A stretch of DNA of 64,000 nucleotides from an uncultured Myxococcales bacterium (GTDB lineage Bacteria > Myxococcota_A > UBA9160 > SZUA-336): NCBI GenBank assembly GCA_964454165.1, contig CAYVQJ010000084.1, positions 44,077 through 108,076 on the forward strand. The letters run 5' to 3'. A program made the position numbers and the translations under genes. The notes under the pieces were generated by a model. The model was not told the DNA's origin. It was given only the letters and a program-made list of their open reading frames with translations, and ran no database searches. Within the stretch, counting starts at the first letter, position 1; the number at the start of each line of letters is the position of its first letter. This document shows positions 2,423 to 63,191 of this stretch, in pieces.

Positions 2423-3514
2423 TCAGTGCCCTCCCAGCGCCGAGTGGAGGGCGAGTAGGATCCGTTCGGGCTGAGCGAGTTCGAAGGAACTCCCGCCTGC
2501 CCAGAGCGGGGCATCTAGAGCGAGGTGCTTGTAGAGGCTCGCGGCCACCGCGATCGTCCGCTTCGGCGCGAACTCCAGGCGATGTCGCAGCGCGATGTCC
2601 GCGAGTCGCGCGCTCTGGCTCGGCAAGCGGCCTGCCCAACGGTGAACGAACTTCTCGGCCGGAAGGTGGTTGCTCTTCGCGGTGTTCTGGCGTGCGTGCG
2701 CGAGCACCAGGTTCTCGAGTGTCGAGAGCGCGTGCCGCGACCAGGGAATGAAGTGATCCACGTGGGCGTCCGACATCCGGAGGGTCGCGCCGGAGTAGAA
2801 GCACTGGCCCTTTTGCAGGCTGAGTAGGTCGCGTCGAAGCTCCAGCGACGCGACCTCTCGGGGTGCGCCGAACAGGTGAGCGAGGAGCCGGTCCTGCTCG
2901 CGGTCGAGCCCGTTCAGCGCGGCCACCTTGCGCCCGAACTCGAACTCGATCAGCGGTCGCAGCGCCGGCGAGAATTGGAGCAGGTCGTCGGCGGCGCCGG
3001 GCAAGAGCTCGAGCGTGCACTTCGTCCCCGACGAAGTCCGGGCTGGCCGCGGCTCGTACAGGAAGCTCGCCTTCTGACGACCCAACGTCTGGAGCCGCGG
3101 GATGGGGTTCTTGACCAGGGCCGCCTCGACGCGTTCGACCGCCCGCTCGTACTCAGGCCCGCATGCTGCGATTGCCTGCTCGATCCGCGTGGTCTCGTCC
3201 GCTCCGCTGGCCTTGCGCAGGTCGGCGACTGCTCGAAGGTATACGTGCGGCCCCTTGGCACTCGCGTTGACCTGCGCGAGCGTGATCGCCGAGCCGTCCG
3301 CGCGGACGAACGGCAGCGCGTGCCGCCAGTGCAAGCCGATCACCCGCCGAGCGAGATCGACACTCCGAAGGTGCGGAGGAGGGACGCCGTCCGCGCTGGC
3401 CCCCTCGACGCAGCTGTCGAGGATCGCGAGTAGGAGGGCGAGCTTGTGAGTCCCGTGCTTCGGCCCCTCCGTGACGATCGCAAGGATACGCTCGAGCAAG
3501 GCGCCGGCCATCAA
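2423..3514 (-). CDS. HNH (His-Me finger) endonuclease domain protein with uncharacterised N-terminal domain
   Basis: C-terminal CFYSG...HVDHFIPWSRHALSTLENLVLAHARQNTAKSNHLP matches the HNH_4/Cas9-type HNH motif (D/H-x-D-H-I-P-x-S ... N-x-V-L ... N-x-x-K). 363 aa; co-directional downstream of the LLM/NTF2 pair. Confidence 0.7.
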   Translation of the reverse strand: MMAGALLERILAIVTEGPKHGTHKLALLLAILDSCVEGASADGVPPPHLRSVDLARRVIGLHWRHALPFVRADGSAITLAQVNASAKGPHVYLRAVADLRKASGADETTRIEQAIAACGPEYERAVERVEAALVKNPIPRLQTLGRQKASFLYEPRPARTSSGTKCTLELLPGAADDLLQFSPALRPLIEFEFGRKVAALNGLDREQDRLLAHLFGAPREVASLELRRDLLSLQKGQCFYSGATLRMSDAHVDHFIPWSRHALSTLENLVLAHARQNTAKSNHLPAEKFVHRWAGRLPSQSARLADIALRHRLEFAPKRTIAVAASLYKHLALDAPLWAGGSSFELAQPERILLALHSALGGH

Positions 3515-3538
3515 ATCCTCGCAGGCGAGCCTCTCTGC

Positions 3539-3970
3539 CTACCTTCCCCCCATCTGCCCCGGGACGTGGTTGGAGCAGTGGAAGTGGACCATGCGCCAGT
3601 CGTCGCTGGCGCCCGGCTGGCGCTGCCAGACCTCGGTGCAGCGGGCGTCCTGGGAGACGCGCCCCAGCGGGCCGAAGTCGGCCTCGAAGTGCAGCAGGTA
3701 GGCGACCCATGCGGCGTCGCCGGAGACGCTGACGCGCTCGTCGCGCGCGATGCTCTTCGCGGGCTTGCTGCCCGGAGACACGCTGCGCAGCATGTCCCAG
3801 AGCTCGCAGATGTGATCGACGCCGTAGTAGTTCGACTGGTTCAGGTTCCACCAGGTGAGCGCGTCCTTGCCGGGCGCCATGTGCGCGCGCAGGAACGCGG
3901 TCTCGCCCGTGCAGTTGGCGGCGATGAAGCCGTCGTGCAGCTCGCGGATGCGCTTCTCGTCGGGGGTCAT
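3539..3970 (-). CDS. NTF2-like / SnoaL-like domain protein
   Basis: 144-aa product from MTPDEKRIRELHDGFIAANCTGE... (ATG at 3970 overlapping the upstream stop as ATGA). Composition and pattern are typical of the NTF2-like superfamily. The longer track ORF is upstream run-on. Confidence 0.6.
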   Translation of the reverse strand: MTPDEKRIRELHDGFIAANCTGETAFLRAHMAPGKDALTWWNLNQSNYYGVDHICELWDMLRSVSPGSKPAKSIARDERVSVSGDAAWVAYLLHFEADFGPLGRVSQDARCTEVWQRQPGASDDWRMVHFHCSNHVPGQMGGR

Positions 3971-4953
3971 CGTTGTCCTCCTGCAGCGGGGCGGGCGTCG
4001 GCGAGCGCGCGCACGAGCGCCGGGTGCTCGTCGGGCGCGGCGAAGAGCGCGACGGAGAGCTCGTCGATGCCGGTGGCGGCGTAGGCGGCGAGCGCGTCGC
4101 CGAGGCCGTCGGGCGTGGAGACGAGCGCGATCGCGTCGATCACCTCGGGCGTGAAGACGCGCAGCGCGGCGAACAGGCCGCCGCTCTGCGCGGAGTTGAC
4201 CAGCGCGCCGGGTGCGATCGCGCCGCGCGCCAGGTACTCGGCCATGCCGGGCTCGGCCATCGCAAACAGAGGGAGCACCGACTTGCGCGCGGAGTCGAGA
4301 TCCTTCGCGATCACACCAAGTGCTAACGCGGTGATGCGGAAGTCGCCGCGCGCGCGGCCGGCAGCGGCGAGCTCGCGCTCGATCTCGCGCACGCTGTCTG
4401 CGAGGTACGCGCGCGACGCGCCGACCGAGAGCGAGACGCCGTCGGCGACGCGCGCCGCGGTGCCGAGCATGCGCGGGCGGATCGCCATCAGGTCGAGCGG
4501 CGGCGCGCCGGTCGCGTGCGCGAGCTTGAAGCCGCGAAAGGCGTAGCGCTCGTACGACACGTTCATCTCGGTCCCGGCGAGCGCGGCGCGGAGCGCGCGC
4601 ACGAAGCTCTCGCACGCGCGGGCGGGACCCTCGATCGCCTGCCCGAGCTTCGCGACGAGCCCCGGATCGCCGGTTCCCACGGCCGCGCGCACGCGCCCCG
4701 GGAAGCACTCGCAGAGCGACGCGAGCTCCATCGCGGTCGTGGCGGGGTGTCGCGTTGCTGTCGACAGGCCCACCACGCCGACCTCGAGCCGTTCGCTCTC
4801 CCGCAGGTACAGCGTCGCGGGGACGATCGCGTCGTGGAACCCCACGTGCTCCGCAACCCAGACGCCGTCGAGCCCCGCGCGATCCGCCTCCCGCAGCGCC
4901 GGCAGCGTGCTCGCGATCGGCGCCATCCCCGTAAAGGCCAGCGAGATCCTCAT
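3967..4953 (-). CDS. LLM-class (luciferase-like) flavin-dependent oxidoreductase
   Basis: 328 aa; TIM-barrel luciferase-like monooxygenase pattern (GLDGVWVAEHVGFHD..., F420/FMN-dependent family). Confidence 0.85.
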   Translation of the reverse strand: MRISLAFTGMAPIASTLPALREADRAGLDGVWVAEHVGFHDAIVPATLYLRESERLEVGVVGLSTATRHPATTAMELASLCECFPGRVRAAVGTGDPGLVAKLGQAIEGPARACESFVRALRAALAGTEMNVSYERYAFRGFKLAHATGAPPLDLMAIRPRMLGTAARVADGVSLSVGASRAYLADSVREIERELAAAGRARGDFRITALALGVIAKDLDSARKSVLPLFAMAEPGMAEYLARGAIAPGALVNSAQSGGLFAALRVFTPEVIDAIALVSTPDGLGDALAAYAATGIDELSVALFAAPDEHPALVRALADARPAAGGQR

Positions 4954-10183: not shown

Positions 10184-10485
10184 GGCTCGATCTCCTCCGG
10201 GAAGTCGTCGAACGGGAAGGGCGCCCGCTCCTCGTTGTACGTCACGTAGCGCCCCATACGGTAGCCATACGCGAGCACGCGGTTGGCGAAACGCCGCACC
10301 CGCTCGCTCGGCGGCGCCTTGGTCACGAATGCGACGATCAGGCTGAACGCGACCAGCGTGATCAGCACGGTCTCGACGACCTGGTAGATCAGAATGAAGA
10401 GCAGGCTCTTCACGAGCCGCAGCGTGGTCTCCGGCCGCTCGATCACACCATCCTCGAACTCCGAGCTCTCGACATGCTGGACCAT
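10180..10485 (-). CDS. small membrane protein (DUF4389-like), co-transcribed with the P450
   Basis: 101 aa from MVQHVESSEF...; two hydrophobic helices (LVKSLLFILIYQVVETVLITLVAFSLIVAFV); GAGGAG RBS 6 nt upstream of ATG 10485. Confidence 0.55.
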   Translation of the reverse strand: MVQHVESSEFEDGVIERPETTLRLVKSLLFILIYQVVETVLITLVAFSLIVAFVTKAPPSERVRRFANRVLAYGYRMGRYVTYNEERAPFPFDDFPEEIEP

Positions 10486-10619
10486 TGGTTTCTCCTCGCC
10501 ACAGGCTGACGCAATCCCCATGCCGGCCTCCAGGTCCCCGGGACCTCCGCCGTCGCATCGAGACGGCACAGGTGCAGTGCCAACCAGGCAGCTACCGCAG
10601 CCCCCGGCCGGCAATGGGT

Positions 10620-10731
10620 TGGAAACGAAGTTGGATCCGAGCTCACAGAGGCCAAGCGCATATCATCGATCAAGTACCTGAAATAGCTAATGGTAATTCT
10701 GTCCTCGGCCCTGCCTTGACTTGGAAACGAA
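10620..10731. repeat. Direct 12-mer repeats TTGGAAACGAAG (10620-10631 and 10720-10731) flanking an AT-rich ~85 bp stretch in the P450-operon/fic divergent intergenic region
   Basis: Seen directly. The AT-rich core (atatcatcgatcaagtacctgaaatagctaatggtaattctg) is anomalous in a ~72% GC background. Candidate promoter/regulatory region for fic. Confidence 0.35.
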
Positions 10732-10749
10732 GCGGAACATGATTGTGCC

Positions 10750-11937
10750 ATGGCTGTCCTCTACGAGCTGCCTCGAAGCTGGATTGGCTACGACCCCGCG
10801 ACCCTGCTCCAGCCGCTTTCCGAGGCAAAGGCTGCGCTACTGGCGTTGACTCAGATCCCCTACCAGCGGAGTTGGGCGGACGACCTGCAGCGCATCCAGC
10901 TCAAGCGCGAGGTGGCGGGAACATCGCGCATCGAGGGCGCCGAGTTCACCGAGATGGAGCTGGAGGCCGCGCTCCGGCAGACACCCGAGAACCTCGCAAC
11001 GCGCTCGCAGCGGCAGGCCGCGGCGGCCGTCGCCACCTACCGGTGGATTGCGAAGTTGCCGAGCGATCGCCCGATCGACGAAGCGCTGATCTACGACGTG
11101 CACCGCCGTCTCGTTACGGGTTGCGATGACGACCACTGTCCGCCGGGCATCCTCCGCGGCCGCGACCAGAACGTGACCTTCGGCACGCCGCGCCACCGCG
11201 GCGTCGAGGGCGGCGAGGCGTGCGCCGAGGCGCTGCGCGGACTCGTCGAGTCCACAGCCACGGGCTTCCGCGCACACGATCCGCTCGTGCAGGCATTGGC
11301 GCTGCACTACCACTTGGTGGCGATGCACCCGTTCCTCGACGGCAACGGCCGCACTGCTCGCGCGCTCGAAGCGCTGATGCTGCAGCGCGTCGGGCTGCGC
11401 GACACGCTGTTCATCGCGATGTCGAACTACTATTACGAGGAGAAGCCGGCCTATCTACAGGCGCTCAACGATACGCGCGCCGCGGGCCACGATCTCACGC
11501 CCTTCCTCCGCTTTGCGCTCAAGGGGATCGAGACGCAGTGCCGGCGGCTCTTCGGCGAGATCCGTCTCCACGTCGCCAAGGCTCTGTACCGCAACACCGT
11601 TGCGGATCTCTTCGGTCGGCTTCGGTCACCGCGAAAGCGCGTCATGTCTGCGCGTCACGTGCAGCTCCTGAACCTATTGCTCGACGAGGGTAGCCTGGCT
11701 CTGAGCGCACTCTCGAAAAGAGCGGCGCCTTTCTACGCGCTCAGGAACCCGGAAAAGGCGCTGGTACGCGACCTCAATTACCTGCTTCGCCTCGAGGCCA
11801 TTGCGTTCGTCTCCGAGGGCGACAGCTACATCTTTGGAATCAACCTCGACTGGCCGACGCAGATCACCGAGACGGAGTTCTTCCGCCGCGTGAAGGAGAT
11901 GCCCAAGGGCAAGGTCTACGGCTTCCTCTCGTCCTGA
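10750..11937 (+). CDS. fic: Fic family protein (AMPylase-type; Fic domain with C-terminal winged-helix region)
   Basis: Fic motif HPFLDGNGRTARAL. N-terminal TSRIEGAEFT matches the (S/T)xxxE(G/N) inhibitory-helix motif of class II autoinhibited Fic proteins. Confidence 0.9.
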   Translation: MAVLYELPRSWIGYDPATLLQPLSEAKAALLALTQIPYQRSWADDLQRIQLKREVAGTSRIEGAEFTEMELEAALRQTPENLATRSQRQAAAAVATYRWIAKLPSDRPIDEALIYDVHRRLVTGCDDDHCPPGILRGRDQNVTFGTPRHRGVEGGEACAEALRGLVESTATGFRAHDPLVQALALHYHLVAMHPFLDGNGRTARALEALMLQRVGLRDTLFIAMSNYYYEEKPAYLQALNDTRAAGHDLTPFLRFALKGIETQCRRLFGEIRLHVAKALYRNTVADLFGRLRSPRKRVMSARHVQLLNLLLDEGSLALSALSKRAAPFYALRNPEKALVRDLNYLLRLEAIAFVSEGDSYIFGINLDWPTQITETEFFRRVKEMPKGKVYGFLSS

Positions 11938-24684: not shown

Positions 24685-25905
24685 ATGCAAGTTGCGCCGG
24701 TCACCGGGCTCGGGGACGAGATCAACGAGATCCGTCTCCGCACGGCAGAGATTGTCACCAAGGAGATCATCCCCAACGAGAATTCGCTGCGGTACGGCAG
24801 CGGCGACAAGCGCCGCGACCTGTTCCGCGGCATCCAGGCGAAGGTCAAGCAGGCCGGCCTCTGGGCGCCCCACCTTCCCGAGGAATACGGCGGGATGGGG
24901 ATCGGGTTCCTGAAGCACGCCTACATGAACGAGATCACGGCGTGGAGCCCGTTCTCGGGCGCGCTCTTCGGCTGCCAGGCGCCGAACTCCGGCAACCAGA
25001 CGATCCTGGTGAAGTACGGGACGCCCGAGCAGAAGAAGCAGTTCCTCGAGCCGTTGGTGCGCGGCGAGATCGAGTCGTGCTTCTCGATGACGGAGCCCAA
25101 CCAGCCGGGCTCGGACCCGTACGCGATCCAGACGCGCGCGGTTCGCGACGGCAACGACTGGGTGATCAACGGGCACAAGTGGTTCACGTCCAACGCGCGG
25201 CGCGCCGCGTTCGCGATCGTGATGTGCCGCACCGAGGGCGACGACGACAGCGGCTCGCGCGACCGCATGACGCAGATCATCGTGCCGATGGACACCAAGG
25301 GCGTGAACATCGTGCGCAGCGTGCCGGTGTGGGGGCACGAGCAGGGCGACCACTGCGAGATCCTCTACGAGAACGTGCGCGTGCCCGTGGAGAACGCGCT
25401 CGGGCGGCGCGGCAGCGGGCACCAGGCGGCTCAGGATCGCCTCGGCGCCGGTCGCGTGTTCCACTGCATGAGCTCGGTCGGCCAGATGTGGCGCGCGTTC
25501 GACCTGATGGTGCGCCGCTCGATGGACCGCGAGGTGCACGGCGGCAAGCTCGAGACCAAGCAGTTCGTGCAGGGCTTCATCGCCGACTCGTACATGGACA
25601 TCCAGAGCGCGAGGCTCATGACGCTGCACTGCGCGCACCAGATGGAGGCGGGCGTGGACCCGCGCACGATGATCTCGGCGATCAAGATCTTCGTACCGGC
25701 GGCGCTCGAGCGCGTGGCCGATCGCGCGATCCAGGTCTGGGGCGCGGCGGGCGTCTCTTCGGACCTGCCGCTCGAGGGCATGTACCGCGGCGCGCGCACG
25801 CTGCGCATCGCCGACGGCCCCGACGAGGTGCACCGCATCCTGATCGCCAAGAACGTGCTCAAGCGCTTGCACGCCGGTGAGTCGTGGGACTTCGGGGTGA
25901 TGTGA
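24685..25905 (+). CDS. acyl-CoA dehydrogenase
   Basis: 406 aa; ACAD N/M/C-domain pattern (CFSMTEPNQPGSDP, IFVPAALERVADRAIQVWGAAGV). Confidence 0.9.
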   Translation: MQVAPVTGLGDEINEIRLRTAEIVTKEIIPNENSLRYGSGDKRRDLFRGIQAKVKQAGLWAPHLPEEYGGMGIGFLKHAYMNEITAWSPFSGALFGCQAPNSGNQTILVKYGTPEQKKQFLEPLVRGEIESCFSMTEPNQPGSDPYAIQTRAVRDGNDWVINGHKWFTSNARRAAFAIVMCRTEGDDDSGSRDRMTQIIVPMDTKGVNIVRSVPVWGHEQGDHCEILYENVRVPVENALGRRGSGHQAAQDRLGAGRVFHCMSSVGQMWRAFDLMVRRSMDREVHGGKLETKQFVQGFIADSYMDIQSARLMTLHCAHQMEAGVDPRTMISAIKIFVPAALERVADRAIQVWGAAGVSSDLPLEGMYRGARTLRIADGPDEVHRILIAKNVLKRLHAGESWDFGVM

Positions 25906-26429
25906 TGGCCGTGAAGAAATTCCCGATCGAAGCGGGAGCGATCGCGCTGTTCGCGCGCTCGGTCAACGATCCCAACCCGATCTACTACGACGAGGACCAC
26001 GCGAAGAAGACGGAGGTCGGCGGGCTGATCGCCCCGCCCACGTTCACGCAGTCGTCGGCGCAGTTCGATCCCGACTGGATGCTGCGGCCGCGCATCGACC
26101 AGCCCTGGCTCGGGTCGGGCAGGGAGCCGACCGGCCTGGTGCGGCGCGCGCCGGCCGAGTCGAGCGGCGGCGGCGGCGGACGGCCGAGCGGCGCGGCCGC
26201 CGGCGGCCTGCACGCCGAGCAGCACTTCGAGTACCTCCGGCCGCTGCACCCGGGAGATGTTCTTCGGGCCGAGACCAAGCCGGGCAAAAGCTGGGAGAAG
26301 GAGGGGAAGCGCGGCGGCAAGCTGCACTTCTCCGAGACCGTGACCGAGTTCTTCGACCCCCAGGGCCAGCTCGTGGTGCGGGCGCGCGGCGTCGGCGTGC
26401 GCACCGAGCGCGTGATCGAGCAGAAGTAG
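25905..26429 (+). CDS. MaoC-like (hot-dog fold) hydratase, N-terminal-type subunit
   Basis: ATG overlaps the ACAD stop (TGATG); MaoC_dehydrat_N-like pattern; Gly-rich linker. Confidence 0.75.
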   Translation: MAVKKFPIEAGAIALFARSVNDPNPIYYDEDHAKKTEVGGLIAPPTFTQSSAQFDPDWMLRPRIDQPWLGSGREPTGLVRRAPAESSGGGGGRPSGAAAGGLHAEQHFEYLRPLHPGDVLRAETKPGKSWEKEGKRGGKLHFSETVTEFFDPQGQLVVRARGVGVRTERVIEQK

Positions 26430-26438
26430 GAGGCAGTC

Positions 26439-26861
26439 ATGGCGCTCAAGCGAAAAGAGCTAGAGGTGGGCAGCGCGCGCGAAGAGGTCGTGGTCGACAA
26501 CCTCACGCGCACCCAGCTCGTGATGTACGCGGGGACGTCCGGCGACTACAACCCGGTCCACAGCGACGAGGTGTTCGCGACCAAGGTCGCGGGCTATCCG
26601 ACGGTGTTCGCGCACGGGATGCTCACCATGGGCCTGACCGCGCGCATGCTCACCAACTGGGTCGGGGACGGGCGGCTCACGCGCTACGGCGTGCGCTTCG
26701 TCTCGCAGGTCTGGCCGGGCGACACGCTCACGGCGCGCGCGAAGGTCGAGACGCTGCGCGACGAGAACGGCGTCGCGCTCGCCGACCTCGAGGTGGTGAC
26801 GACGAACCAGAACGGCCAGGAGGTCGTGCGCGGCTACGCCACGGCTCGGCTCGATCCATGA
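26439..26861 (+). CDS. MaoC family dehydratase (hot-dog fold)
   Basis: YAGTSGDYNPVHSDEVFA is the MaoC dehydratase signature. Confidence 0.85.
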   Translation: MALKRKELEVGSAREEVVVDNLTRTQLVMYAGTSGDYNPVHSDEVFATKVAGYPTVFAHGMLTMGLTARMLTNWVGDGRLTRYGVRFVSQVWPGDTLTARAKVETLRDENGVALADLEVVTTNQNGQEVVRGYATARLDP

Positions 26862-30946: not shown

Positions 30947-31046
30947 GGTCCGGCCTGAGCCGCGATGGCTGTCGCCAAGCGGCCTTCGCTCGGCTGCGCC
31001 TCGCTGCGCGCGCTTCGCGCTTGCGAGGTAGGCTCTCGGCTCGACG

Positions 31047-31745
31047 ATGATCTGTCTGTCGTTCGACAACCTCGGCGGCATCGCGGAGGGTGACTTCGAT
31101 CCGGCGCATCCGGCGCTGGCGGTCGGGCTGCCGCGCATCCTGGCACTGCTCGAGCGTCTCGGTGTGCGCGCGACCTTCTTCGTCGAAGGCCACGCGGGGG
31201 AGATCTTTCCCGACGCCGTGCGGGCGATCGCGCGTGCCGGGCACGAGGTCGCGCTGCACGCGTGGCAGCACGAGCAGTGGGGAGCACTCGCGCCCGCGGA
31301 GGAGGAGCGTCTACTTGCGCTTGGCGTAGACGCGCTGACGAAGCTGCTCGGCGCGCCGCCGCGCGGGTTCCGCCCGCCCGGAGGCAAGCTCACCGACGCG
31401 AGCGCCGAACTCTTCGCCGCACACGGGATCGCGTGGGTCTCGACCGCGGAAGGGCACACTCGCGGGCTGGCGGGCGCGGCGTTTACCTGGCGTCGCGTAG
31501 ACGCCACGAACACGATCCCGCGCCTCGGTGGGCGTGAGACCCCGGAGCAGTGCTTCGCGCGCTGGCTCGACGAGGCGCGCGCGCACGAATCCCGCTCGCC
31601 CGAGGCTCCGTGGGTCACCGTGGCGCACCCGTTCTGCGCGGGTCTCGACCCGGCGTGGCCGGCGTTCGAGCGCTTCGCCGAGGCGCTCGCCCATGCGGTC
31701 GGACCTGCTGCATTCCACACGTTGGGCGACGCCTCGGCGGTGTAG
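31047..31745 (+). CDS. polysaccharide deacetylase (NodB-homology) family protein
   Basis: RATFFVEGH...HEVALHAWQHE matches the NodB motifs. Confidence 0.8.
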   Translation: MICLSFDNLGGIAEGDFDPAHPALAVGLPRILALLERLGVRATFFVEGHAGEIFPDAVRAIARAGHEVALHAWQHEQWGALAPAEEERLLALGVDALTKLLGAPPRGFRPPGGKLTDASAELFAAHGIAWVSTAEGHTRGLAGAAFTWRRVDATNTIPRLGGRETPEQCFARWLDEARAHESRSPEAPWVTVAHPFCAGLDPAWPAFERFAEALAHAVGPAAFHTLGDASAV

Positions 31746-31766
31746 GATCGCCCGAGGGAGGAGCCG

Positions 31767-33314
31767 ATGAACCCGATCGTTGTTACGCAGCAGGGCAAGC
31801 TTGAAGGCCTCGAGCGCGGCGGCATGCAGGTGTTCCTGGGCATTCCGTACGCCGCCCCGCCGGTAGGAGCGCGCCGCTGGCTGCCGCCCGCCCCGCCCGA
31901 GCGCTGGTCCGGCGTGCGGCGCGCGCAGACCGCCTCGCCCGCGGCGCCGCAGAACCCGATCCCCATCGACATCCTGCCGATCCTGAAGCTCGACGGCCCG
32001 CAGAGCGAAGATTGCCTGTACCTCAACGTCTGGACGCCCGCGCTCGACGGCGCGCAGCGCCCCGTGCTGTTCTGGATCCACGGCGGTGGCTTCACGATCG
32101 GCTCCGGCACGCAGCTCCTCGAGGACTACGACGGTTCCCTCGCGAGGCGAGGCGACTGCGTGATGGTGTCGATCAACTACCGTCTGGGCCCGCTCGGCTT
32201 CCTGAATCTGCGCGAGCTCACGAACGGCGCGATCCCGGCGTGCGGCAACGAGGGGCTGCTCGATCAGATCGCCGCGCTCGCGTGGGTGCGCGACAACATC
32301 GCGTCGTTCGGCGGCGATCCCGACAACGTGACGATCTTCGGCGAGTCGGCCGGCGGCATGAGCGTGGGGTCGCTGTGCGGCATGCCCGCTGCGGCGGGCC
32401 TGTTCCACAAGGCGATCCCGCAGAGCGGCGCGACCAACACCGCGAGCTCGCTCGGGCGCGCGGTGAAGGTGGCCGAGCGCTGCGCGGGGATCCTCGGCAC
32501 GCGCGACGCCGCCGTGCTGCGCGCGCTAGACGTGCCGACGCTGCTCGCGCTCCAGCCCAAGCTCGTGCCGGGACCGGGCCAGCAGGACCCGGAGATCGGC
32601 GCGATGCCGTTCCAGCCGTGCGTGGACGGCGACGAGCTGCCGACCAGCGCGATCGAGGCAGTGCGGCGCGGGCTGGCGCGCGGCGTCGCGCTGCTCGTCG
32701 GCGCGACGAGCGAAGAGTGGAAGCTGTTCGGCGCGATCGACCCCACGCTCCAGACGCTGGACGAGGCGCGCCTCGGACCGCTCTGCGCGTCGCGCGCGCC
32801 TGGCGGTGAGAGCATCGTGTCGGCGTACCGCACCGCCCGTGCGGCACGCGGACAGAGCACGACGCCGCGCGAGCTGTTCATGGCATTCGAGACCGACCGC
32901 GTGTTCCGCGTCCCGGCACAGCGCATGCTCGAAGCGCAGGCCGCGCACGAGCGCCGGCTGTACTCGTATCTCGTCACGTGGCCCTCGCCCGCGTTCGGCG
33001 GGATGCTCGGCGCCTGTCACGCCGTCGAGCTCGGGCCGCTGTTCGGGATCCACGACAAGACGCCGGTGCTCGCCGACTTCTTCGGACGCGGCCCGGCGGC
33101 CGACGCGCTCTCGCGGGCGATGCAGGAGGCGTGGACTGCCTTCGCGAAGAGCGGCGATCCGAGTGGACCGTCGCTCGGCCGCTGGCCCGCCTGGGACGCA
33201 GCGCGCCGCGCCACCATGCTGCTCGGCGAAAAGTGCTCGGTGGAGCACGATCCGCTCGGCGCCGAGCGCCAGGCGTGGGACGGTGCACCCGACGCCGTCA
33301 TCGGCACTCTCTAG
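31767..33314 (+). CDS. carboxylesterase type B (para-nitrobenzyl-esterase-like)
   Basis: FWIHGGGF oxyanion-hole region and nucleophile elbow GESAGG. Confidence 0.9.
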   Translation: MNPIVVTQQGKLEGLERGGMQVFLGIPYAAPPVGARRWLPPAPPERWSGVRRAQTASPAAPQNPIPIDILPILKLDGPQSEDCLYLNVWTPALDGAQRPVLFWIHGGGFTIGSGTQLLEDYDGSLARRGDCVMVSINYRLGPLGFLNLRELTNGAIPACGNEGLLDQIAALAWVRDNIASFGGDPDNVTIFGESAGGMSVGSLCGMPAAAGLFHKAIPQSGATNTASSLGRAVKVAERCAGILGTRDAAVLRALDVPTLLALQPKLVPGPGQQDPEIGAMPFQPCVDGDELPTSAIEAVRRGLARGVALLVGATSEEWKLFGAIDPTLQTLDEARLGPLCASRAPGGESIVSAYRTARAARGQSTTPRELFMAFETDRVFRVPAQRMLEAQAAHERRLYSYLVTWPSPAFGGMLGACHAVELGPLFGIHDKTPVLADFFGRGPAADALSRAMQEAWTAFAKSGDPSGPSLGRWPAWDAARRATMLLGEKCSVEHDPLGAERQAWDGAPDAVIGTL

Positions 33315-33344
33315 CCCACAACGCATCCAGCGGAGGAAATCCCG

Positions 33345-34232
33345 ATGCCCAGCTCACAACACGAAATGGTCGTTCAGATGCTCGTCGCGCGGCCGCGGCC
33401 GCAGAACCCGACGCTCGCCGAGATGCGCGCCGGCTTCGAGGCGCTCGTCCAGATGTTCCCGGTGCCGGCGGACGTCGTGCGCGAGCCCGTCCAGGTCGGG
33501 CGCATCGCGGCGGAGTGGGTGAGTGTCCCCGGCAGCCGCAGCGATCGCGCCGTGCTGTACCTGCACGGCGGCGGCTACGTGATCGGCTCGCTGAACACGC
33601 ACCGAGAGCTGGCGTCGCGCATTGCGCGGGCGACGCAGACGCGCGTGCTCATGATCGACTACCGGCTCGCGCCGGAGCACCCGTTCCCGGCCGCGGTCGA
33701 CGATGCGACCGCCGCCTATCGCTGGCTGCTCGCGAGCGGGCTCCCGGCCGGTCGTATCGCAGTGATGGGCGACTCGGCCGGAGGCGGGCTCACGCTCGCC
33801 ACGCTGCTCGCGCTGCGCGGTGGGCGCGATCCGCTCCCCGCGGCGGGAGTCTGCCTGTCGCCGTGGACCGACCTCGAGGGAACCGGCGCCTCGGCCCAGC
33901 CGGGCGGCGCCGACGATCCCCTGCTCGAGCTCGCGGGCCTGCGCGAGATGGGCCGCCACTACGCGGCGCACGACCCGCGCAATCCGCTTGCGGCACCCTT
34001 GCACGCGGACTTTCGAGGACTTCCGCCACTACTGCTCCAGGTCGGCACGCGCGAGCTCCTGCTCGACGACTCCACGCGCGTGGCCCAGAAGGCGAAGGCC
34101 GCCGGCGTGGACGTGACGCTCGAGAAGTGGGACGGCCTGATCCACGTCTGGCAGCTCTTCGGCCCCACGGTCCCCGAAGCCGAGCAAGCCGTCGCCCGCA
34201 TCGGCGAGTTCGTCCGCAAGCACGTGGGATAG
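33345..34232 (+). CDS. alpha/beta hydrolase, hormone-sensitive-lipase-like esterase family
   Basis: HGGGY oxyanion motif and GDSAGG nucleophile elbow. Confidence 0.9.
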   Translation: MPSSQHEMVVQMLVARPRPQNPTLAEMRAGFEALVQMFPVPADVVREPVQVGRIAAEWVSVPGSRSDRAVLYLHGGGYVIGSLNTHRELASRIARATQTRVLMIDYRLAPEHPFPAAVDDATAAYRWLLASGLPAGRIAVMGDSAGGGLTLATLLALRGGRDPLPAAGVCLSPWTDLEGTGASAQPGGADDPLLELAGLREMGRHYAAHDPRNPLAAPLHADFRGLPPLLLQVGTRELLLDDSTRVAQKAKAAGVDVTLEKWDGLIHVWQLFGPTVPEAEQAVARIGEFVRKHVG

Positions 34233-59787: not shown

Positions 59788-60875
59788 TAGTGTCCCGCAA
59801 CTGAAGTTGGGTGAATTAACTTCGAGTCTGGCCCGTCCCCCATGCGAGCTGCTCTCATGGAGGACCACCGATGGCTCGAGGACGACCCAAGGCCCCGCTC
59901 TCGCGCTCGGACGATGAACGTCGCGTGCTCGAGGGCTACACGCGCCAGCGCGAGATCGCCCAGCAACTGGCGCTGCGCGCCCGCATCGTGCTCGGCTGCG
60001 CCGCGGGAGCGGAGAACGAGGCCGTCGGCGAGAAGCTCGGCGTGCATCCCGTGACGGTCGGCGAATGGCGGGCGCGCTTCCTGCGCGACCGGCTCCGGGG
60101 TTTGTCCGACGCACCCCGTTCCGGCGCCCCGCGCAGCATGAGCGACGAGCAGGTGGAGCGCGTCGTGAAGCTCACGCTGGAGGCGACGCCGCGCAATGCG
60201 ACGCTCTCGCTGCAGCCGCATCGCGTCGAGAGCTTCCGGCTCTCCAACGATCCCACCTGAACGGGCGATGGTGCTGTGCGTCGACGAGAAGTCGCAGATC
60301 CAGGCGCTCGATCGCACGCAGCCGATGCTGCCGCTGCGTCCGGGCCAGCCGGGGCGGCGCAGCCACGACTACCGACGCCACGGCACCACCTCGTTGTTCG
60401 CCGCACTCGACGTGGCCTCGGGGTCCGTGCTGGGCAAGTGCTACCGGCGGCACCGCTCCCAGGAGTTCCTCGACTTCCTCAAGCGAATCGACAGCGCCGT
60501 GCCCGTCGGGCTCGACCTGCACCTGATCCTCGACAACTACTCCACGCACAAGACCGAGAAGGTGAGGAGCTGGCTGGCCCGCCATCCCCGCTTCCAGCTG
60601 CACTTCACGCCGACCTACAGCTCCTGGATCAACCTCGTCGAGCGCTTCTTCGCACTGCTCTCGGAGCAGTGGCTCAAGCGCGGCGCGCACCGCAGCACCT
60701 TCGAGCTGGAGCAGGCGATCCTGCACTACATCGAGCATGGCAACCGCAACCCCAAGCCGTTCGTCTGGACCAAGACCGCCGACCAGATCCTCGAGACGAT
60801 CGCCCGCTTCTGCCAGGGCACCCTCGCCGCGCACGCGCCCGATTCACTCAAGCGAACTTCAGGCACGGGACACTA
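59788..60875. mobile_element. IS630-family insertion sequence (~1.09 kb) with imperfect terminal inverted repeats and flanking TA
   Basis: Left end TA|GTGTCCCGcaaCTGAAGTT... at 59788; right end ...AACTTCAGgcaCGGGACAC|TA at 60875 (reverse complement matches the left end 18/22). TA target duplication is typical of IS630/Tc1-mariner. Encodes the two transposase ORFs below. Confidence 0.8.
59871..60260 (+). CDS. IS630-family transposase, N-terminal HTH part (frame 0)
   Basis: HTH region and HRVESFRLSNDP, resembling the conserved IS630 KPHRVETFKLSTDP segment. Appears to lack ~20 aa of the second HTH relative to typical family members (from memory of the family). Confidence 0.7.
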   Translation: MARGRPKAPLSRSDDERRVLEGYTRQREIAQQLALRARIVLGCAAGAENEAVGEKLGVHPVTVGEWRARFLRDRLRGLSDAPRSGAPRSMSDEQVERVVKLTLEATPRNATLSLQPHRVESFRLSNDPT

Positions 60876-60876
60876 G
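60196..60876 (+). CDS. IS630-family transposase, DDE catalytic part (frame +1 relative to N-terminal ORF)
   Basis: VLCVDEKSQIQALDRTQP, ILDNYSTHK, TPTYSSWINLVERFFA = DDE motifs of IS630 transposases. Frame change relative to the N-terminal ORF occurs ~60240-60265. Confidence 0.8.
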   Translation: MRRSRCSRIASRASGSPTIPPERAMVLCVDEKSQIQALDRTQPMLPLRPGQPGRRSHDYRRHGTTSLFAALDVASGSVLGKCYRRHRSQEFLDFLKRIDSAVPVGLDLHLILDNYSTHKTEKVRSWLARHPRFQLHFTPTYSSWINLVERFFALLSEQWLKRGAHRSTFELEQAILHYIEHGNRNPKPFVWTKTADQILETIARFCQGTLAAHAPDSLKRTSGTGH

Positions 60877-60895: not shown

Positions 60896-61765
60896 ATGGA
60901 TGGCAAGCAAGTAGTCGTGACCGGGGCCACGTCCGGGATCGGACGCGTCACCGCGAAGGCGCTCGCGCGCAAGGGAGCCGCGCTTGCGATCGTCTGCCGC
61001 GACGCGGCGAAGGGCCACGCGCTGGCCGCGGAGATCCGCTCCGGCTCGGCCGAGCCGAGGGTGGACGTGTTCTTGGCCGATCTCTCGAAGCAGGCCGACG
61101 TGCGCCGCGTCGCCGTGGAGCTGCTCGAGCGCTGCCCCCGGATCGACGTGCTCGTGAACAATGCTGGCATCGTGAACGTGCGCCGCGAGCTCACCGACGA
61201 CGGTCTCGAGGCGACCTTCGCGACCAATCACCTGGCGTATTACCTGCTCACGCGGCTGCTGCTGGAGCGCCTCGTCGCGTCGGCGCCCGCGCGGATCGTC
61301 AACGTGGCTTCCGACGCGCACCGCTTCGGAACGCTCGACCCTGACGACCTGCAGAACGCGAAGCGCTACCGCAGCATGTCCGTCTACGGCCAGTCGAAGC
61401 TTTGCAATCTGCTGTTCAGCTACGAGCTGGCGCGGCGGCTCGAGGGGACCGGCGTGACGGTGAACGCGCTCCACCCGGGCACAGTGCGAACCGGGCTCGG
61501 GCGCAACAACGGCGGCCTGCTCGGGCTCTTGCCCGCGATCCTCGGGCTCTTCTTCCGCACGCCGGAGAAGGGCGCGCAGACGTCGATCTGGCTGGCCTCG
61601 TCGCCCGACGTGAAGGATGTCTCGGGCAAGTACTTCTACGACCTGCGCGAGCACCGCTCGAACGACGCGTCGCGCGACCGCGAGCTCTCGCGGCGGCTAT
61701 GGGACGAGAGCGCCAGACTCGTCGGGCTTCAGTCGTCCAGCCCCGGCATGCGGACGGGGGCGTAG
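60896..61765 (+). CDS. SDR-family oxidoreductase (retinol-dehydrogenase-like)
   Basis: VTGATSGIG, NNAG, YGQSK (Y-x-x-x-K). The IS630 right end lies ~20 bp upstream of its start codon. Confidence 0.85.
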   Translation: MDGKQVVVTGATSGIGRVTAKALARKGAALAIVCRDAAKGHALAAEIRSGSAEPRVDVFLADLSKQADVRRVAVELLERCPRIDVLVNNAGIVNVRRELTDDGLEATFATNHLAYYLLTRLLLERLVASAPARIVNVASDAHRFGTLDPDDLQNAKRYRSMSVYGQSKLCNLLFSYELARRLEGTGVTVNALHPGTVRTGLGRNNGGLLGLLPAILGLFFRTPEKGAQTSIWLASSPDVKDVSGKYFYDLREHRSNDASRDRELSRRLWDESARLVGLQSSSPGMRTGA

Positions 61766-62847
61766 TAGCGGCGCTCGCCGAGCGCGTCGACGCGCCCCCA
61801 GAACTCGGGACCGCCCGCGGCCATCGGGTCGCCGAGCGCCAGACGCTGCCGGAAGAAGCACCAGCTCTCGGGCCGCAGGCGCACGGCTTCCTCGAGGAAC
61901 GGCGCGGCCTCGGTCGCGCGGCCGTGTGCGTGAAGCCACTGGCCGAGCCGGAAGCTCGCGGTCGCGCGCGCGTCGTCGTTGCTCGGCGCCGCCAGGCGGT
62001 CGCGCGCTTCCGTGGGCGCGACCACGTAAGGGCTCTCCGCCCCGAGCCGCACCCAGTCGCGGATCGCGTCGTGGTACACCGCACGGCGTCGCCCGTACTC
62101 GGCGATCACGTCGGGCGCGAGCGCGAACGTCTTCCGGTCCATCGCGCGGAAGCCGTCGAAGGCGCTCGAGGGCTCGGGCGGGCGCACGATCCGGCCCTGC
62201 TCGTCGATCCAGACTGCGATCGGCACGTTCAGCATGTCGTAGAGCGCCGCGACGCGGTGCTCGCGATCCACGAGCGACGGATGCGTGGGCTTCGCGGCGC
62301 GAATCCACGGGCCCGCTGCGTCGGCTCCGGCGCTATCGAGCGCGACGGTGATCGGGACGAAGCCCTGCGGTCCGAGCTCCGCGTACAGTGCCTGCCACCC
62401 GGGCAGGTCCATGCGGCAGCCTCACCACGAGGCCCAGCTCACCACGATCACCTTCTTGCCGCGGTGATCGGACAGGCGATGCGTGCGGCCGTCCAGGTCG
62501 GGGAGCTCGAAGTCGGGCGCTTCGAGGGACGCGAGCGCGGCGCGCCGGTCCCCGCTGGCTTCCCCGATCGACCACACGTCGCCCGACGTCGTGCGCAGCA
62601 GCGGCTGCCTGCGCTGGCGCGCCAGAGCGGCGAGATCGAAGCTGCGCTCGGGGCCGGCGCCGCGCACGAATTCGGCCTCGCGGCCCCGCGGCAGCGGTAC
62701 GCAGAGCGAGCCGCGGCAGGCGCCCTCGGGCTTCAAGGTCCAGCCGGACGCCACCTCGAGCTCTTCGAGCGGGATCCAGAGCGACTCGCCGTCGACGCGC
62801 GCGCCCTTCGCGTGCCCGGTGCCCTCCTCGTTCAGGATCGTCGTCAT
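61729..62847 (-). CDS. TlpA/redoxin-like thioredoxin-fold protein interrupted by a single in-frame TGA at the active-site Cys position (selenoprotein candidate or pseudogene)
   Basis: ORFs 62422-62847 and 61729-62412 are in the same frame, separated only by TGA at 62422-62424. Read-through gives ...APDFELPDLDGRTHRLSDHRGKKVIVVSWASW-[TGA]-GCRMDLPGWQALYAELGPQGFVPITVALD..., colinear with TlpA/ResA WCxxC proteins. The TGA sits where the first Cys is expected; motif reads W-U-G-C, one residue shorter than canonical. Confidence 0.5.
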
Positions 62848-63191
62848 CGCCGCCTCCGTGTCTTGCGCGATTGTACTCGCGCACGGGGTCTCCAGGCGTA
62901 GCGGTCGAGATCGACCCGGCCGCGGGCGTCGAAGCGGACGCCCTCCGCCTCCAGTCGGTCGCGCTGCTCGAAGTCGCCGGCGGAGGAGCGGCGCGGCGAG
63001 ACCTGGCCGCGGACGTTGATCACGCGCTGCCAGGGCACCGAGGTCGGGTCACTGACGAGCGCCGCCAGGGCCCAGCCGACCTCCCGGGCGCCGTGCGGCA
63101 GCCCCGCGAGCTCGGCGACCTGCCCGTACGTCGCCACGCGCCCTCGCGGAATGCGCGACACCACGCGGTAGATCTGCTTCCAGCGCGACAC
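62844..63191 (-). CDS. alkyltransferase-like (ATL) protein, MGMT-family DNA-binding domain with Trp replacing the acceptor Cys
   Basis: IYRVVSRIPRGRVATYGQVAELAG...VPWQRVINVRG: MGMT helix-turn-helix plus P-W-Q-R-V in place of the P-C-H-R-V active site, the hallmark of ATL proteins. GTG start ~63191; track ORF 5' extension is antisense run-on of the dioxygenase gene. Confidence 0.65.
   Translation of the reverse strand: MSRWKQIYRVVSRIPRGRVATYGQVAELAGLPHGAREVGWALAALVSDPTSVPWQRVINVRGQVSPRRSSAGDFEQRDRLEAEGVRFDARGRVDLDRYAWRPRARVQSRKTRRRR

Follow-up and report, generated by a model that had tools for sequence, protein, structure and literature searches.

An in-frame UGA at the catalytic position of a ResA/TlpA-like gene from an uncultured Myxococcales bacterium: a new member of a predicted selenoprotein family

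The stretch of DNA analysed (64,000 nucleotides from an uncultured Myxococcales bacterium, hereafter the window) contained on its minus strand two open reading frames, one at 62422..62847 (141 aa) and the other at 61729..62412 (227 aa), which lay in a common frame with a single TGA (62422-62424) between them; a first-pass annotation of the locus had described the same arrangement, with coordinates and sequence that proved correct. Translation across the TGA gave ...KKVIVVSWASW*GCRMDLPGWQALYAELGPQGFVPITVALD..., where the motif context reads ...VVSWASW-U-GCRMDLPGW.... According to this translation and to the match with the NCBIfam model NF041054, the complete gene occupies 61729..62847 (minus strand) and comprises 372 codons plus a terminal TGA (61729-61731). 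Its start ATG (62845-62847) was placed where the N-terminus aligns with the starts of full-length homologs, and a GGAGG resembling a Shine-Dalgarno sequence, presumably functional, could be read 5 nt 5' of it (62853..62857, minus strand). The in-frame UGA corresponds to residue 142 (U142), a column that also holds TGA in orthologs, and belongs to W-A-S-W-U-G-C (62416..62436, minus strand), the WAxxUGC family motif, which includes the U-x-C redox centre. A coding signature was present on both sides, GC3 being 0.93 upstream of the TGA and 0.87 downstream, and 62422-62424 was the only in-frame TGA within the window for which this was the case. The window held no further selenoprotein genes, the other adjacent same-frame ORF pairs being separate genes ended by TAG.

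Directly upstream, an MGMT-like gene (62844..63191, minus strand) encodes an alkyltransferase-like protein of 115 aa with a PWQRV motif (Pfam DNA_binding_1, E=6.3e-21), and its stop overlaps the start of the selenoprotein gene (ATGA). This adjacency was absent from the other loci, which makes a functional link improbable; the MGMT-like gene is thus probably unconnected in function to the selenoprotein. When the ORFs within ~6.5 kb of the gene were clustered for 160 loci, no partner conserved across phyla appeared, and the synteny observed was lineage-specific only.

The read-through protein, with U entered as C for HMM scoring, matched NF041054 (WAxxUGC_long) with 316.7 bits (E=2.2e-94), exceeding the 300 bits set as curated cutoff, and the alignment ran across the stop codon, from residues 24 to 364 of the protein on model positions 7-351 of 354. 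The model bears the name "ResA-like WAxxUGC motif-containing protein", and the family has the aliases "Prx-like (UGC-containing)" and "UGC-containing TlpA family". The W-A-S-W-TGA-G-C of the window is an exact match to its motif, with TGA at the U position, and the protein displays the long architecture of the model, namely an N-terminal C-x4-C domain, a thioredoxin fold and a C-terminal helical domain. It was collinear over its full length with 72 full-length homologs; among the 73 full-length family proteins W138, S140 and C144 were invariant and C142 and G143 nearly so. Two features that the first-pass annotation had listed as oddities, the W-U-G-C motif one residue shorter than usual and the extensions of about 100 aa at both ends, turned out to be conserved traits of the family and not defects. 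No essential difference separated the window protein from the family, and the three-domain length class was the same. Compared with most members, Gly replaces Val in D-L-P-V-W-Q, so that the loop of the hairpin described below is CGGGU and not CGUGU (this D-L-P-G variant with loop CGGGU occurred in 8 of 145 loci), and, compared with many NF041054-type homologs, Ser stands in place of the Cys of Y-P-C-L-I-D.

The family has been described as a predicted selenoprotein (PMC2398784; PMC13188914) and is tabulated in a 2026 review as having no established function (PMC13188914). The "Prx-like (UGC)" group of the GOS data probably corresponds to NF041054, judging from the shared motif and the Pfam assignment; a literature search with the term "WAxxUGC" gave no papers. 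The window gene is a real selenoprotein gene; as its family was predicted in 2008 and is curated at NCBI, it adds one more member to a known family without being novel itself, and current understanding is left unchanged. Both the function and the selenium content of family members are predictions.

The first-pass annotation had pointed to orthologs as a means of learning whether this column holds Cys or TGA and whether the shortened motif is kept. In two unselected scans, TGA occupied the Sec column in 157 of 160 orthologous loci, genuine Cys forms were also present, and the short motif was conserved. Among species-representative genomes, TGA was carried by each of the 80 best loci (Myxococcota, Binataceae, Chloroflexota, Methylomirabilota, Acidobacteriota, Alpha- and Betaproteobacteria), as did 77 of 80 metagenome loci retrieved with a Cys-form query, the remaining three being Cys loci; owing to this outcome, the Cys-form control was confined to 8 verified TGC/TGT loci. 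The motif of the window gene recurred in 153 Sec-form loci, and the other four had W-S-S-W-TGA-G-C. The 157 TGA loci are ~50% diverged and distributed over many phyla, and the nearest relatives of the window gene were all Sec forms. Wherever tested (153/153 Sec loci), no stop interrupted the frame on either side, over a minimum of 136 codons upstream and 224 downstream. Verified Cys forms displayed, at the DNA level and in the same column, either TGT (Hyalangium gracile) or TGC (Pseudorhodoferax, a Dehalococcoidia MAG and others). Thus, a UGA that aligns with Cys in homologs (8 TGC/TGT loci) is kept as UGA in orthologs (157 loci).

A hairpin located just 3' of the UGA constitutes a candidate bacterial SECIS (62391..62407, minus strand), lying within the coding sequence for D-L-P-G-W-Q-A. 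Its 6-bp stem is formed by CCUGCC (62402-62407) and GGCAGG (62391-62396) and closes a 5-nt loop, CGGGU (62397-62401), with G as the second loop base and at a distance of 20 nt from the UGA. The energy ranged from -9.3 to -10.6 kcal/mol (-9.3 for the bare hairpin), with all six pairs formed. The hairpin conforms to all four published bSECIS rules, these being a stem of 4-16 bp, a loop of 3-9 nt with a G among its two leading nucleotides, a UGA-loop distance of 16-37 nt and an MFE <= -7.5 kcal/mol (PMC13188914). RNAalifold, applied to 80 Sec loci, gave the same hairpin as its consensus, in which 99.2% of cells were paired and two pairs presented compensatory CG<->UA changes; its covariation score was reached by 0 of 500 shuffles, the shuffle and Fisher statistics on the hairpin being uncorrected for phylogeny. 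The Leu codon in the stem ended in G in 145/145 loci, in comparison with 37/133 and 70/129 for the neighbouring Leu codons. In the 8 Cys forms the hairpin was weaker (85% of cells paired; median -7.0 vs. -9.3 kcal/mol). Since the conserved Pro, Trp and Gln largely dictate four of the six pairs, selection at the RNA level is visible only in the Leu wobble position and the two covarying pairs.

In keeping with the bSECISearch consensus, whose prototype is E. coli fdhF, this is a stem-loop in coding sequence just 3' of the UGA in which loop position 2 is G and the next base is G or U; it departs from that consensus in that a lower stem is not conserved, RNAfold giving different lower helices for different orthologs. 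The bulged U of the fdhF SECIS probably has no counterpart in the window hairpin. By analogy, SelB may bind the hairpin at 62391-62407. Rfam returned no family at gathering threshold in the whole window and, at E<=10 around the TGA site, only a spurious ACAT match; the bacterial SECIS families of Rfam omit this gene family. The conserved hairpin supplies the SECIS-like structure that the first-pass annotation had named as something to look for, and it overlaps another one drawn there, CUGCCGC...GUGGCAG. The latter does exist (-10.7 kcal/mol), but it is not conserved and a role as SECIS could not be upheld: its helix (UGCCGC/GUGGCA, alignment columns 22-27 with 42-47) showed no compensatory changes and did no better than shuffles, its closing pair was broken in 41 of 80 orthologs, and it fails the bSECIS rules because the apical loop starts only 13 nt after the UGA and neither of its first two bases is G.

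Three domains could be distinguished in the protein. The N-terminal one bears a C-x4-C pair (C44, C49; 62701..62718, minus strand) that is nearly invariant in the 73 family proteins and may have a role. The central ResA/TlpA-like thioredoxin-fold domain (~residues 110-228; 62164..62520, minus strand) was identified through Pfam, AhpC-TSA matching with E=6.8e-17 and Redoxin with E=2.9e-10; the score for AhpC-TSA (PF00578) was 62 bits, above the gathering cutoff of 26. The C-terminal domain (~residues 245-360; 61768..62115, minus strand) was assigned as all-helical and TPR-like from the model of a homolog and family conservation, the TPR matches being weak and under the Pfam cutoffs. Fold and domain boundaries were taken from an AlphaFold2 model (pLDDT 94.7) of a Cys homolog, P0002, 53% identical to the window protein; this model displayed all three domains, with C-terminal helices at 248-358. 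Foldseek superimposed it on ResA (1su9, 1st9, 2f9s) with an rmsd of 1.2-1.5 A over ~115 residues (~28% identity, TMt ~0.77), and also matched TlpA (1jfu); the model has a thioredoxin fold with the TlpA-type insertion. For the extra N- and C-terminal domains, no PDB counterpart was present among the structural matches (TMq ~0.3). A HMMER comparison with solved TlpA/ResA-type proteins aligned the TGA with the first Cys of CxxC, which bears out the earlier proposal that it sits at the redox Cys of a TlpA-like fold, and left a gap of one residue ahead of the second Cys (WASWCG-CR vs. WATWCPPCR).

The window protein thus shares with ResA of Bacillus subtilis and TlpA of Bradyrhizobium the central thioredoxin fold, the upstream F-x-L-P-D-x-x-G and W-A-S-W context and the position of the catalytic residue. 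Whereas ResA and TlpA are extracytoplasmic CxxC reductases involved in the maturation of cytochrome c and Cu centres, the window protein has a U-x-C centre, no anchor and extra domains. Instead of a C-x-x-C active site it presents U-G-C, one residue shorter, or C-G-C in the Cys forms, and its scores of 58.4 bits with the curated ResA model (NF002854, >=170 bits required) and 41.2 bits with the curated TlpA model (NF047696, >=230 bits required) were far too low for either family. A simple hydropathy analysis detected no hydrophobic segment, signal peptide or anchor (maximum 19-residue Kyte-Doolittle mean 0.88; mean of the first 30 residues -0.31); in view of this sequence feature, the selenoprotein is probably cytoplasmic. 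It also resembles the Sec-containing peroxiredoxin and Prx-like selenoproteins (T-x-x-U, U-x-x-C), which fall in the AhpC-TSA clan and in which Sec replaces the redox Cys (PMC13188914), although the U-G-C spacing is different. The peroxidatic motif that defines Prx, P-x-x-x-T/S-x-x-C(U) (PMC13188914), was not found in the window protein, where V-V-S-W-A-S-W-U has Ala at -3 and Val at -7.

Gene integrity, family membership, TGA conservation, the conserved hairpin and the fold were established here. We consider it very likely that the locus is one intact gene, encoding a soluble selenoprotein of 372 residues, whose UGA is recoded as selenocysteine; the mid-gene stop codon is almost certainly decoded in this way. 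The earlier proposal of a Sec-containing TlpA/ResA-like oxidoreductase gains support from the NF041054 match, the TGA in 157/160 loci, the TGC and TGT homologs, the covarying hairpin and three independent assemblies.

The alternative that retains most plausibility, albeit very little, is that the gene is intact but stranded in an organism that lost the Sec machinery or never had it, so that the UGA would terminate translation or allow low-level read-through with a near-cognate tRNA, either that for Cys or that for Trp. Homologs of E. coli SelA, SelB and SelD were not found by tblastn in the window, nor did ARAGORN detect a tRNA-Sec there or in 60 flanking loci, and one study describes loss of selenoproteins and Sec-to-Cys conversion as common in bacteria (PMC1794560). 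Under such circumstances, however, decay or conversion to Cys would be expected, yet the hairpin is at full strength with its six pairs, the coding signature is intact, and every one of the nearest relatives is a Sec form. In two related loci (L135 and L020) a selB homolog adjoins the gene, the sole sel gene that tblastn found there. The Sec-decoding capacity of this organism is assumed.

A pseudogene, decaying after mutation of a Cys codon (TGC or TGT) to TGA, had been the alternative offered in the first-pass annotation. TGC and TGT homologs do exist, a single base change would lead from them to TGA, and gene calling yields two ORFs at the locus; against this, the TGA persists in the 157 diverged loci, the frame is open in all 153 tested, GC3 is high in both halves, the joined halves exceed the curated full-length cutoff and the hairpin 3' of the TGA is conserved. 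We regard this alternative as close to refuted. It would be just as surprising if there were two genes, a 141-aa protein ending at the TGA and a 227-aa protein starting at the ATG 62410-62412. That ATG (the Met of C-R-M-D) does come three codons after the TGA and pipelines call both ORFs, but the position is Met in just 14 of 145 Sec loci, and Arg, Phe, Ala or others elsewhere, so the restart codon is not conserved; moreover, such a split would cut the thioredoxin fold right before the active-site helix and drop the catalytic residue, and each Cys form is one polypeptide chain. An error of sequencing or assembly hiding a true TGC or TGT, a generic alternative wherever a MAG shows a lone in-frame stop, has nothing specific in its favour and can be practically dismissed: besides the source contig, independent assemblies of three read sets (SRR9952630, SRR15166930, SRR15166932) contain the identical sequence with TGA, and TGA is the rule in orthologs.

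For the selenoprotein gene, the following course of events is proposed. The UGA at 62422-62424 would be recoded to selenocysteine during translation and, in analogy to E. coli fdhF, the hairpin at 62391-62407 would bring SelB-GTP-Sec-tRNA(Sec) to the ribosome. The predicted product combines the N-terminal C-x4-C domain, the ResA/TlpA-like thioredoxin fold and the C-terminal TPR-like helical domain; Sec142 is its nucleophile, first in the active site, where helix alpha-1 begins. Sec142 and Cys144 may then cycle between the selenol/thiol and selenenylsulfide states (U-G-C); from this cycle we propose a thiol-disulfide (or peroxide) oxidoreductase activity. Sec insertion in this organism, as well as the redox chemistry and the substrate of the protein, are what we infer from the locus.

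The terminal domains without a match among solved structures and the lack of a conserved operon partner leave room for a functionally new selenoenzyme. Such a reading, which we put forward as a speculation less likely to be right than wrong, would make the family a cytoplasmic enzyme distinct from ResA/TlpA-type reductases, with the strained U-G-C centre and the conserved N-terminal C-x4-C pair forming an internal redox relay and the C-terminal TPR-like domain holding some client. If this were true, Sec forms would dominate in soil and groundwater phyla because Cys is inefficient at such relay chemistry.

As regards annotation, the ORFs of 141 aa and 227 aa, unnamed in public collections, constitute one selenoprotein gene and should be annotated as such. 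Standard gene calling splits the Sec forms, so that Cys forms, although rarer, are over-represented in protein databases; in the DNA itself, the great majority of unselected loci carry TGA (157/160). The family is widespread in phyla of soil and groundwater (Binatota, Methylomirabilota, Chloroflexota and Myxococcota) and, with its unusual U-x-C centre and a function that is predicted, it represents a reasonable experimental target.

Two minus-strand open reading frames of 141 aa (62422..62847) and 227 aa (61729..62412) shared one frame and were divided by a single in-frame TGA (62422-62424), as coordinates and translation both confirmed for the arrangement claimed in the first-pass annotation. 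The 372-residue read-through protein includes ...KKVIVVSWASW-U-GCRMDLPGWQALY..., and a GGAGG was located 5 nt upstream of its ATG at 62847 on the same strand. All TGAs of the window were screened for a two-sided coding signature (open for ≥ 60 codons, GC3 ≥ 0.8, GC2 < 0.6), and across the whole window only 62422-62424 passed, with GC3 values of 0.93 upstream and 0.87 downstream. This indicated that the feature is real, unique in the window, and no by-product of the high G+C content (70.6%).

When Cys was substituted for the stop, the window protein matched the Pfam models AhpC-TSA (E = 6.8e-17) and Redoxin and, as the more telling result, the NCBIfam model NF041054 over residues 24-364 (316.7 bits vs. 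a curated cutoff of 300), whereas it scored far under the cutoffs of the ResA and TlpA models (58 vs. 170 bits and 41 vs. 230 bits, respectively). NF041054 ("WAxxUGC_long") is of equivalog type and carries the name "ResA-like WAxxUGC motif-containing protein", and W-A-S-W-U-G-C in the window is the exact motif of the family name. A table in a 2008 GOS paper lists 46 Sec sequences as "Prx-like (UGC-containing)", pfam00578, motif UGC, a group commoner in non-marine samples (PMC2398784). The shared motif and Pfam assignment indicate that the family of the window gene is the selenoprotein family predicted in 2008 and curated as NF041054. HMMER alignment with solved TlpA/ResA-type proteins matched the Sec codon to the leading Cys of CxxC, with a one-residue gap preceding the second, in agreement with the proposed location of the UGA at the redox-active Cys of a TlpA-like fold. 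The one-residue-short motif and the extensions of about 100 aa, previously flagged as oddities, proved to be family features: full-length homologs read W-A-S-W-C-G-C with the same spacing, and have in common an N-terminal domain of about 100 aa with a nearly invariant C-x4-C (C44 and C49 in the window protein) and a C-terminal helical region.

Orthologs mostly carried TGA at the motif column. It was present in 80/80 of the best loci when a single genome of each species was scanned; these loci belong to Myxococcota, Binataceae, Chloroflexota, Methylomirabilota, Acidobacteriota, and Alpha- and Betaproteobacteria. When metagenomes were scanned with Cys-form proteins as seeds, 77 of the loci obtained had TGA and 3 had TGC. 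Cys forms are real, and were verified in DNA: Hyalangium gracile has TGT, and Pseudorhodoferax sp. Leaf274, a Dehalococcoidia MAG, and several metagenome contigs have TGC. Against this conservation, and with at least 136 open codons before and at least 224 after the TGA in 153 Sec loci, a pseudogene, that is, an in-frame stop in a decaying gene, as the first-pass annotation had allowed, is very improbable. Equally hard to credit are two separate genes, the second restarting at the ATG three codons past the TGA; gene callers do take this codon as a restart, but it is Met in only 14/145 loci, so that the two-gene reading is not conserved. A read error could be excluded, since three read sets, each assembled on its own, yielded the window sequence with the TGA. 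The interpretation of the window gene as Sec-encoding is therefore supported. A natural variant without the first redox residue was found in the homologous protein P0004 (79% identical to the Cys homolog P0002), where W-A-S-W-S-E-C has Ser-Glu-Cys in place of U/C-G-C.

From an ungapped alignment of 80 distinct Sec loci, beginning 15 nt ahead of the TGA and reaching 75 nt past its first base, RNAalifold derived a single 6-bp consensus hairpin (CCUGCC / GGCAGG). Its 5-nt loop reads CGUGU in the majority of loci and CGGGU in the window, where this candidate SECIS maps to 62391-62407 (minus strand). Pairing was observed in 99.2% of cells, with compensatory CG<->UA changes at two stem pairs (in 6 and 2 sequences); neither this paired share nor the covariation score was attained in any of 500 shuffles, and the paired share fell to 26-62% at slid control positions. 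As the stem lies inside the D-L-P-V-W-Q-A codons, several of its pairs are fixed by amino acids. The purely synonymous wobble base of the stem Leu was G in 145/145 loci, vs. 37/133 and 70/129 for nearby Leu codons (Fisher p = 3e-44 and 5e-24, uncorrected for phylogeny), and the stem Gln was CAG in 142/145, with neighbouring Glu codons G-ending in only about 60%. The window hairpin agreed with every bSECIS rule of a 2026 review (PMC13188914): 6-bp stem (rule 4-16 bp), 5-nt loop (3-9 nt), G at loop position 2 followed by a further G (G within the first two positions), UGA-to-loop spacing of 20 nt (16-37 nt), and MFE of -9.3 kcal/mol for the bare hairpin (≤ -7.5 kcal/mol). Cys forms kept a weaker hairpin (85% of cells paired, median -7.0 kcal/mol), a pattern that fits relaxation following Sec-to-Cys conversion, in a small sample (n = 8 loci). 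The hairpin drawn in the first-pass annotation (UGCCGC...GUGGCA) can form in the window (-10.7 kcal/mol) but is not the conserved element, with which it is mutually exclusive; it was rejected as SECIS, having no compensatory support, a closing pair broken in 41/80 loci, and a loop that begins too near the UGA and lacks the required G. A sub-clade of four loci (L108, L118, L119, and L120) reads W-S-S-W-U-G-C and D-L-S-V-W-Q, with the TGA kept at about 1915-1921; through the replacement of Pro by Ser, one stem pair becomes a G-U wobble, and pairing is preserved.

No tRNA genes were found in the 64-kb window, nor did tblastn searches with E. coli SelA, SelB, and SelD detect homologs there. Indirect support for Sec machinery came from two orthologous loci, each with a nearby selB homolog (37-40% identity to E. 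coli SelB). In L135 (a 211-kb metagenome contig) the homolog lies directly downstream of the Sec-form gene on the opposite strand (2577-4025) and covers E. coli SelB residues 154-608; in L020 (a Candidatus Acidiferrales MAG) it is about 8.5 kb away (10257-11297).

No gene neighbour conserved across phyla was found around the orthologs. In the window, a 115-aa MGMT-like gene (Pfam DNA_binding_1; 62844-63191, minus strand) precedes the selenoprotein gene, and its stop and the selenoprotein start codon overlap (ATGA), an arrangement suggesting that both are co-transcribed; this pairing is unique to the window locus, being absent from about 160 others. The encoded protein reads PWQRV where methyltransferases read PCHRV, an alkyltransferase-like (ATL) signature. 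The 3' end of the selenoprotein gene is faced by a short-chain dehydrogenase gene in convergent orientation. In five loci (L164, 1965-2888; L171, 22-888; L172, 1-886; L085; and L086) a divergent AraC_N/HTH_18 regulator was located about 520 nt upstream; all five are Cys forms of a Hyalangium/Myxococcus-like clade, and no Sec-form locus had the regulator. An IS630-like insertion sequence (59820-60876, plus strand) comprises overlapping ORFs in different frames, HTH (59820-60260) and DDE_3 transposase (60196-60876), probably linked through a programmed frameshift; close to this element lies the end of an independent Logan contig covering the locus. Same-frame adjacent genes separated by TAG occur at 25881-26861 and 31032-34232 (plus strand), named by eye from translations as a MaoC-like dehydratase pair and polysaccharide deacetylase-like, carboxylesterase-like, and alpha/beta-hydrolase-like genes. 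They were rejected as read-through candidates because every downstream gene has its own start, and are ordinary gene boundaries.

The AlphaFold2 model of P0002, which shares 53% identity with the window protein, was confident (pLDDT 94.7, pTM 0.91). In it, a mixed alpha/beta domain at the N-terminus is followed by a central thioredoxin fold, in which C-G-C starts a long helix, and by a bundle of helices at the C-terminus. PDB counterparts were found for the central domain only, which resembles ResA, TlpA, StoA, and Etrx (rmsd 1.2-1.5 A, about 28% identity, query coverage about 0.3), and none for the terminal domains. Unlike ResA and TlpA, the window protein is probably cytoplasmic, since it has no hydrophobic segment fit for a signal peptide or anchor. 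In the best-supported mechanism, Sec142 would be inserted in a SelB/SECIS-dependent manner, and a U142-G-C144 selenenylsulfide would then redox-cycle in the thioredoxin-fold active site.

Among the best 120 protein-database matches there were many full-length Cys forms, whereas Sec forms appeared only as C-terminal fragments of about 220 aa; at the DNA level, TGA was present in 157/160 unselected loci (L004-L163). This indicated that standard gene calling conceals the Sec majority of the family. Novelty is limited by the 2008 prediction and the curation as NF041054; what is new is one more family member, at present mis-split, together with the description of the family's SECIS and of the extent to which Sec forms outnumber Cys forms in DNA.
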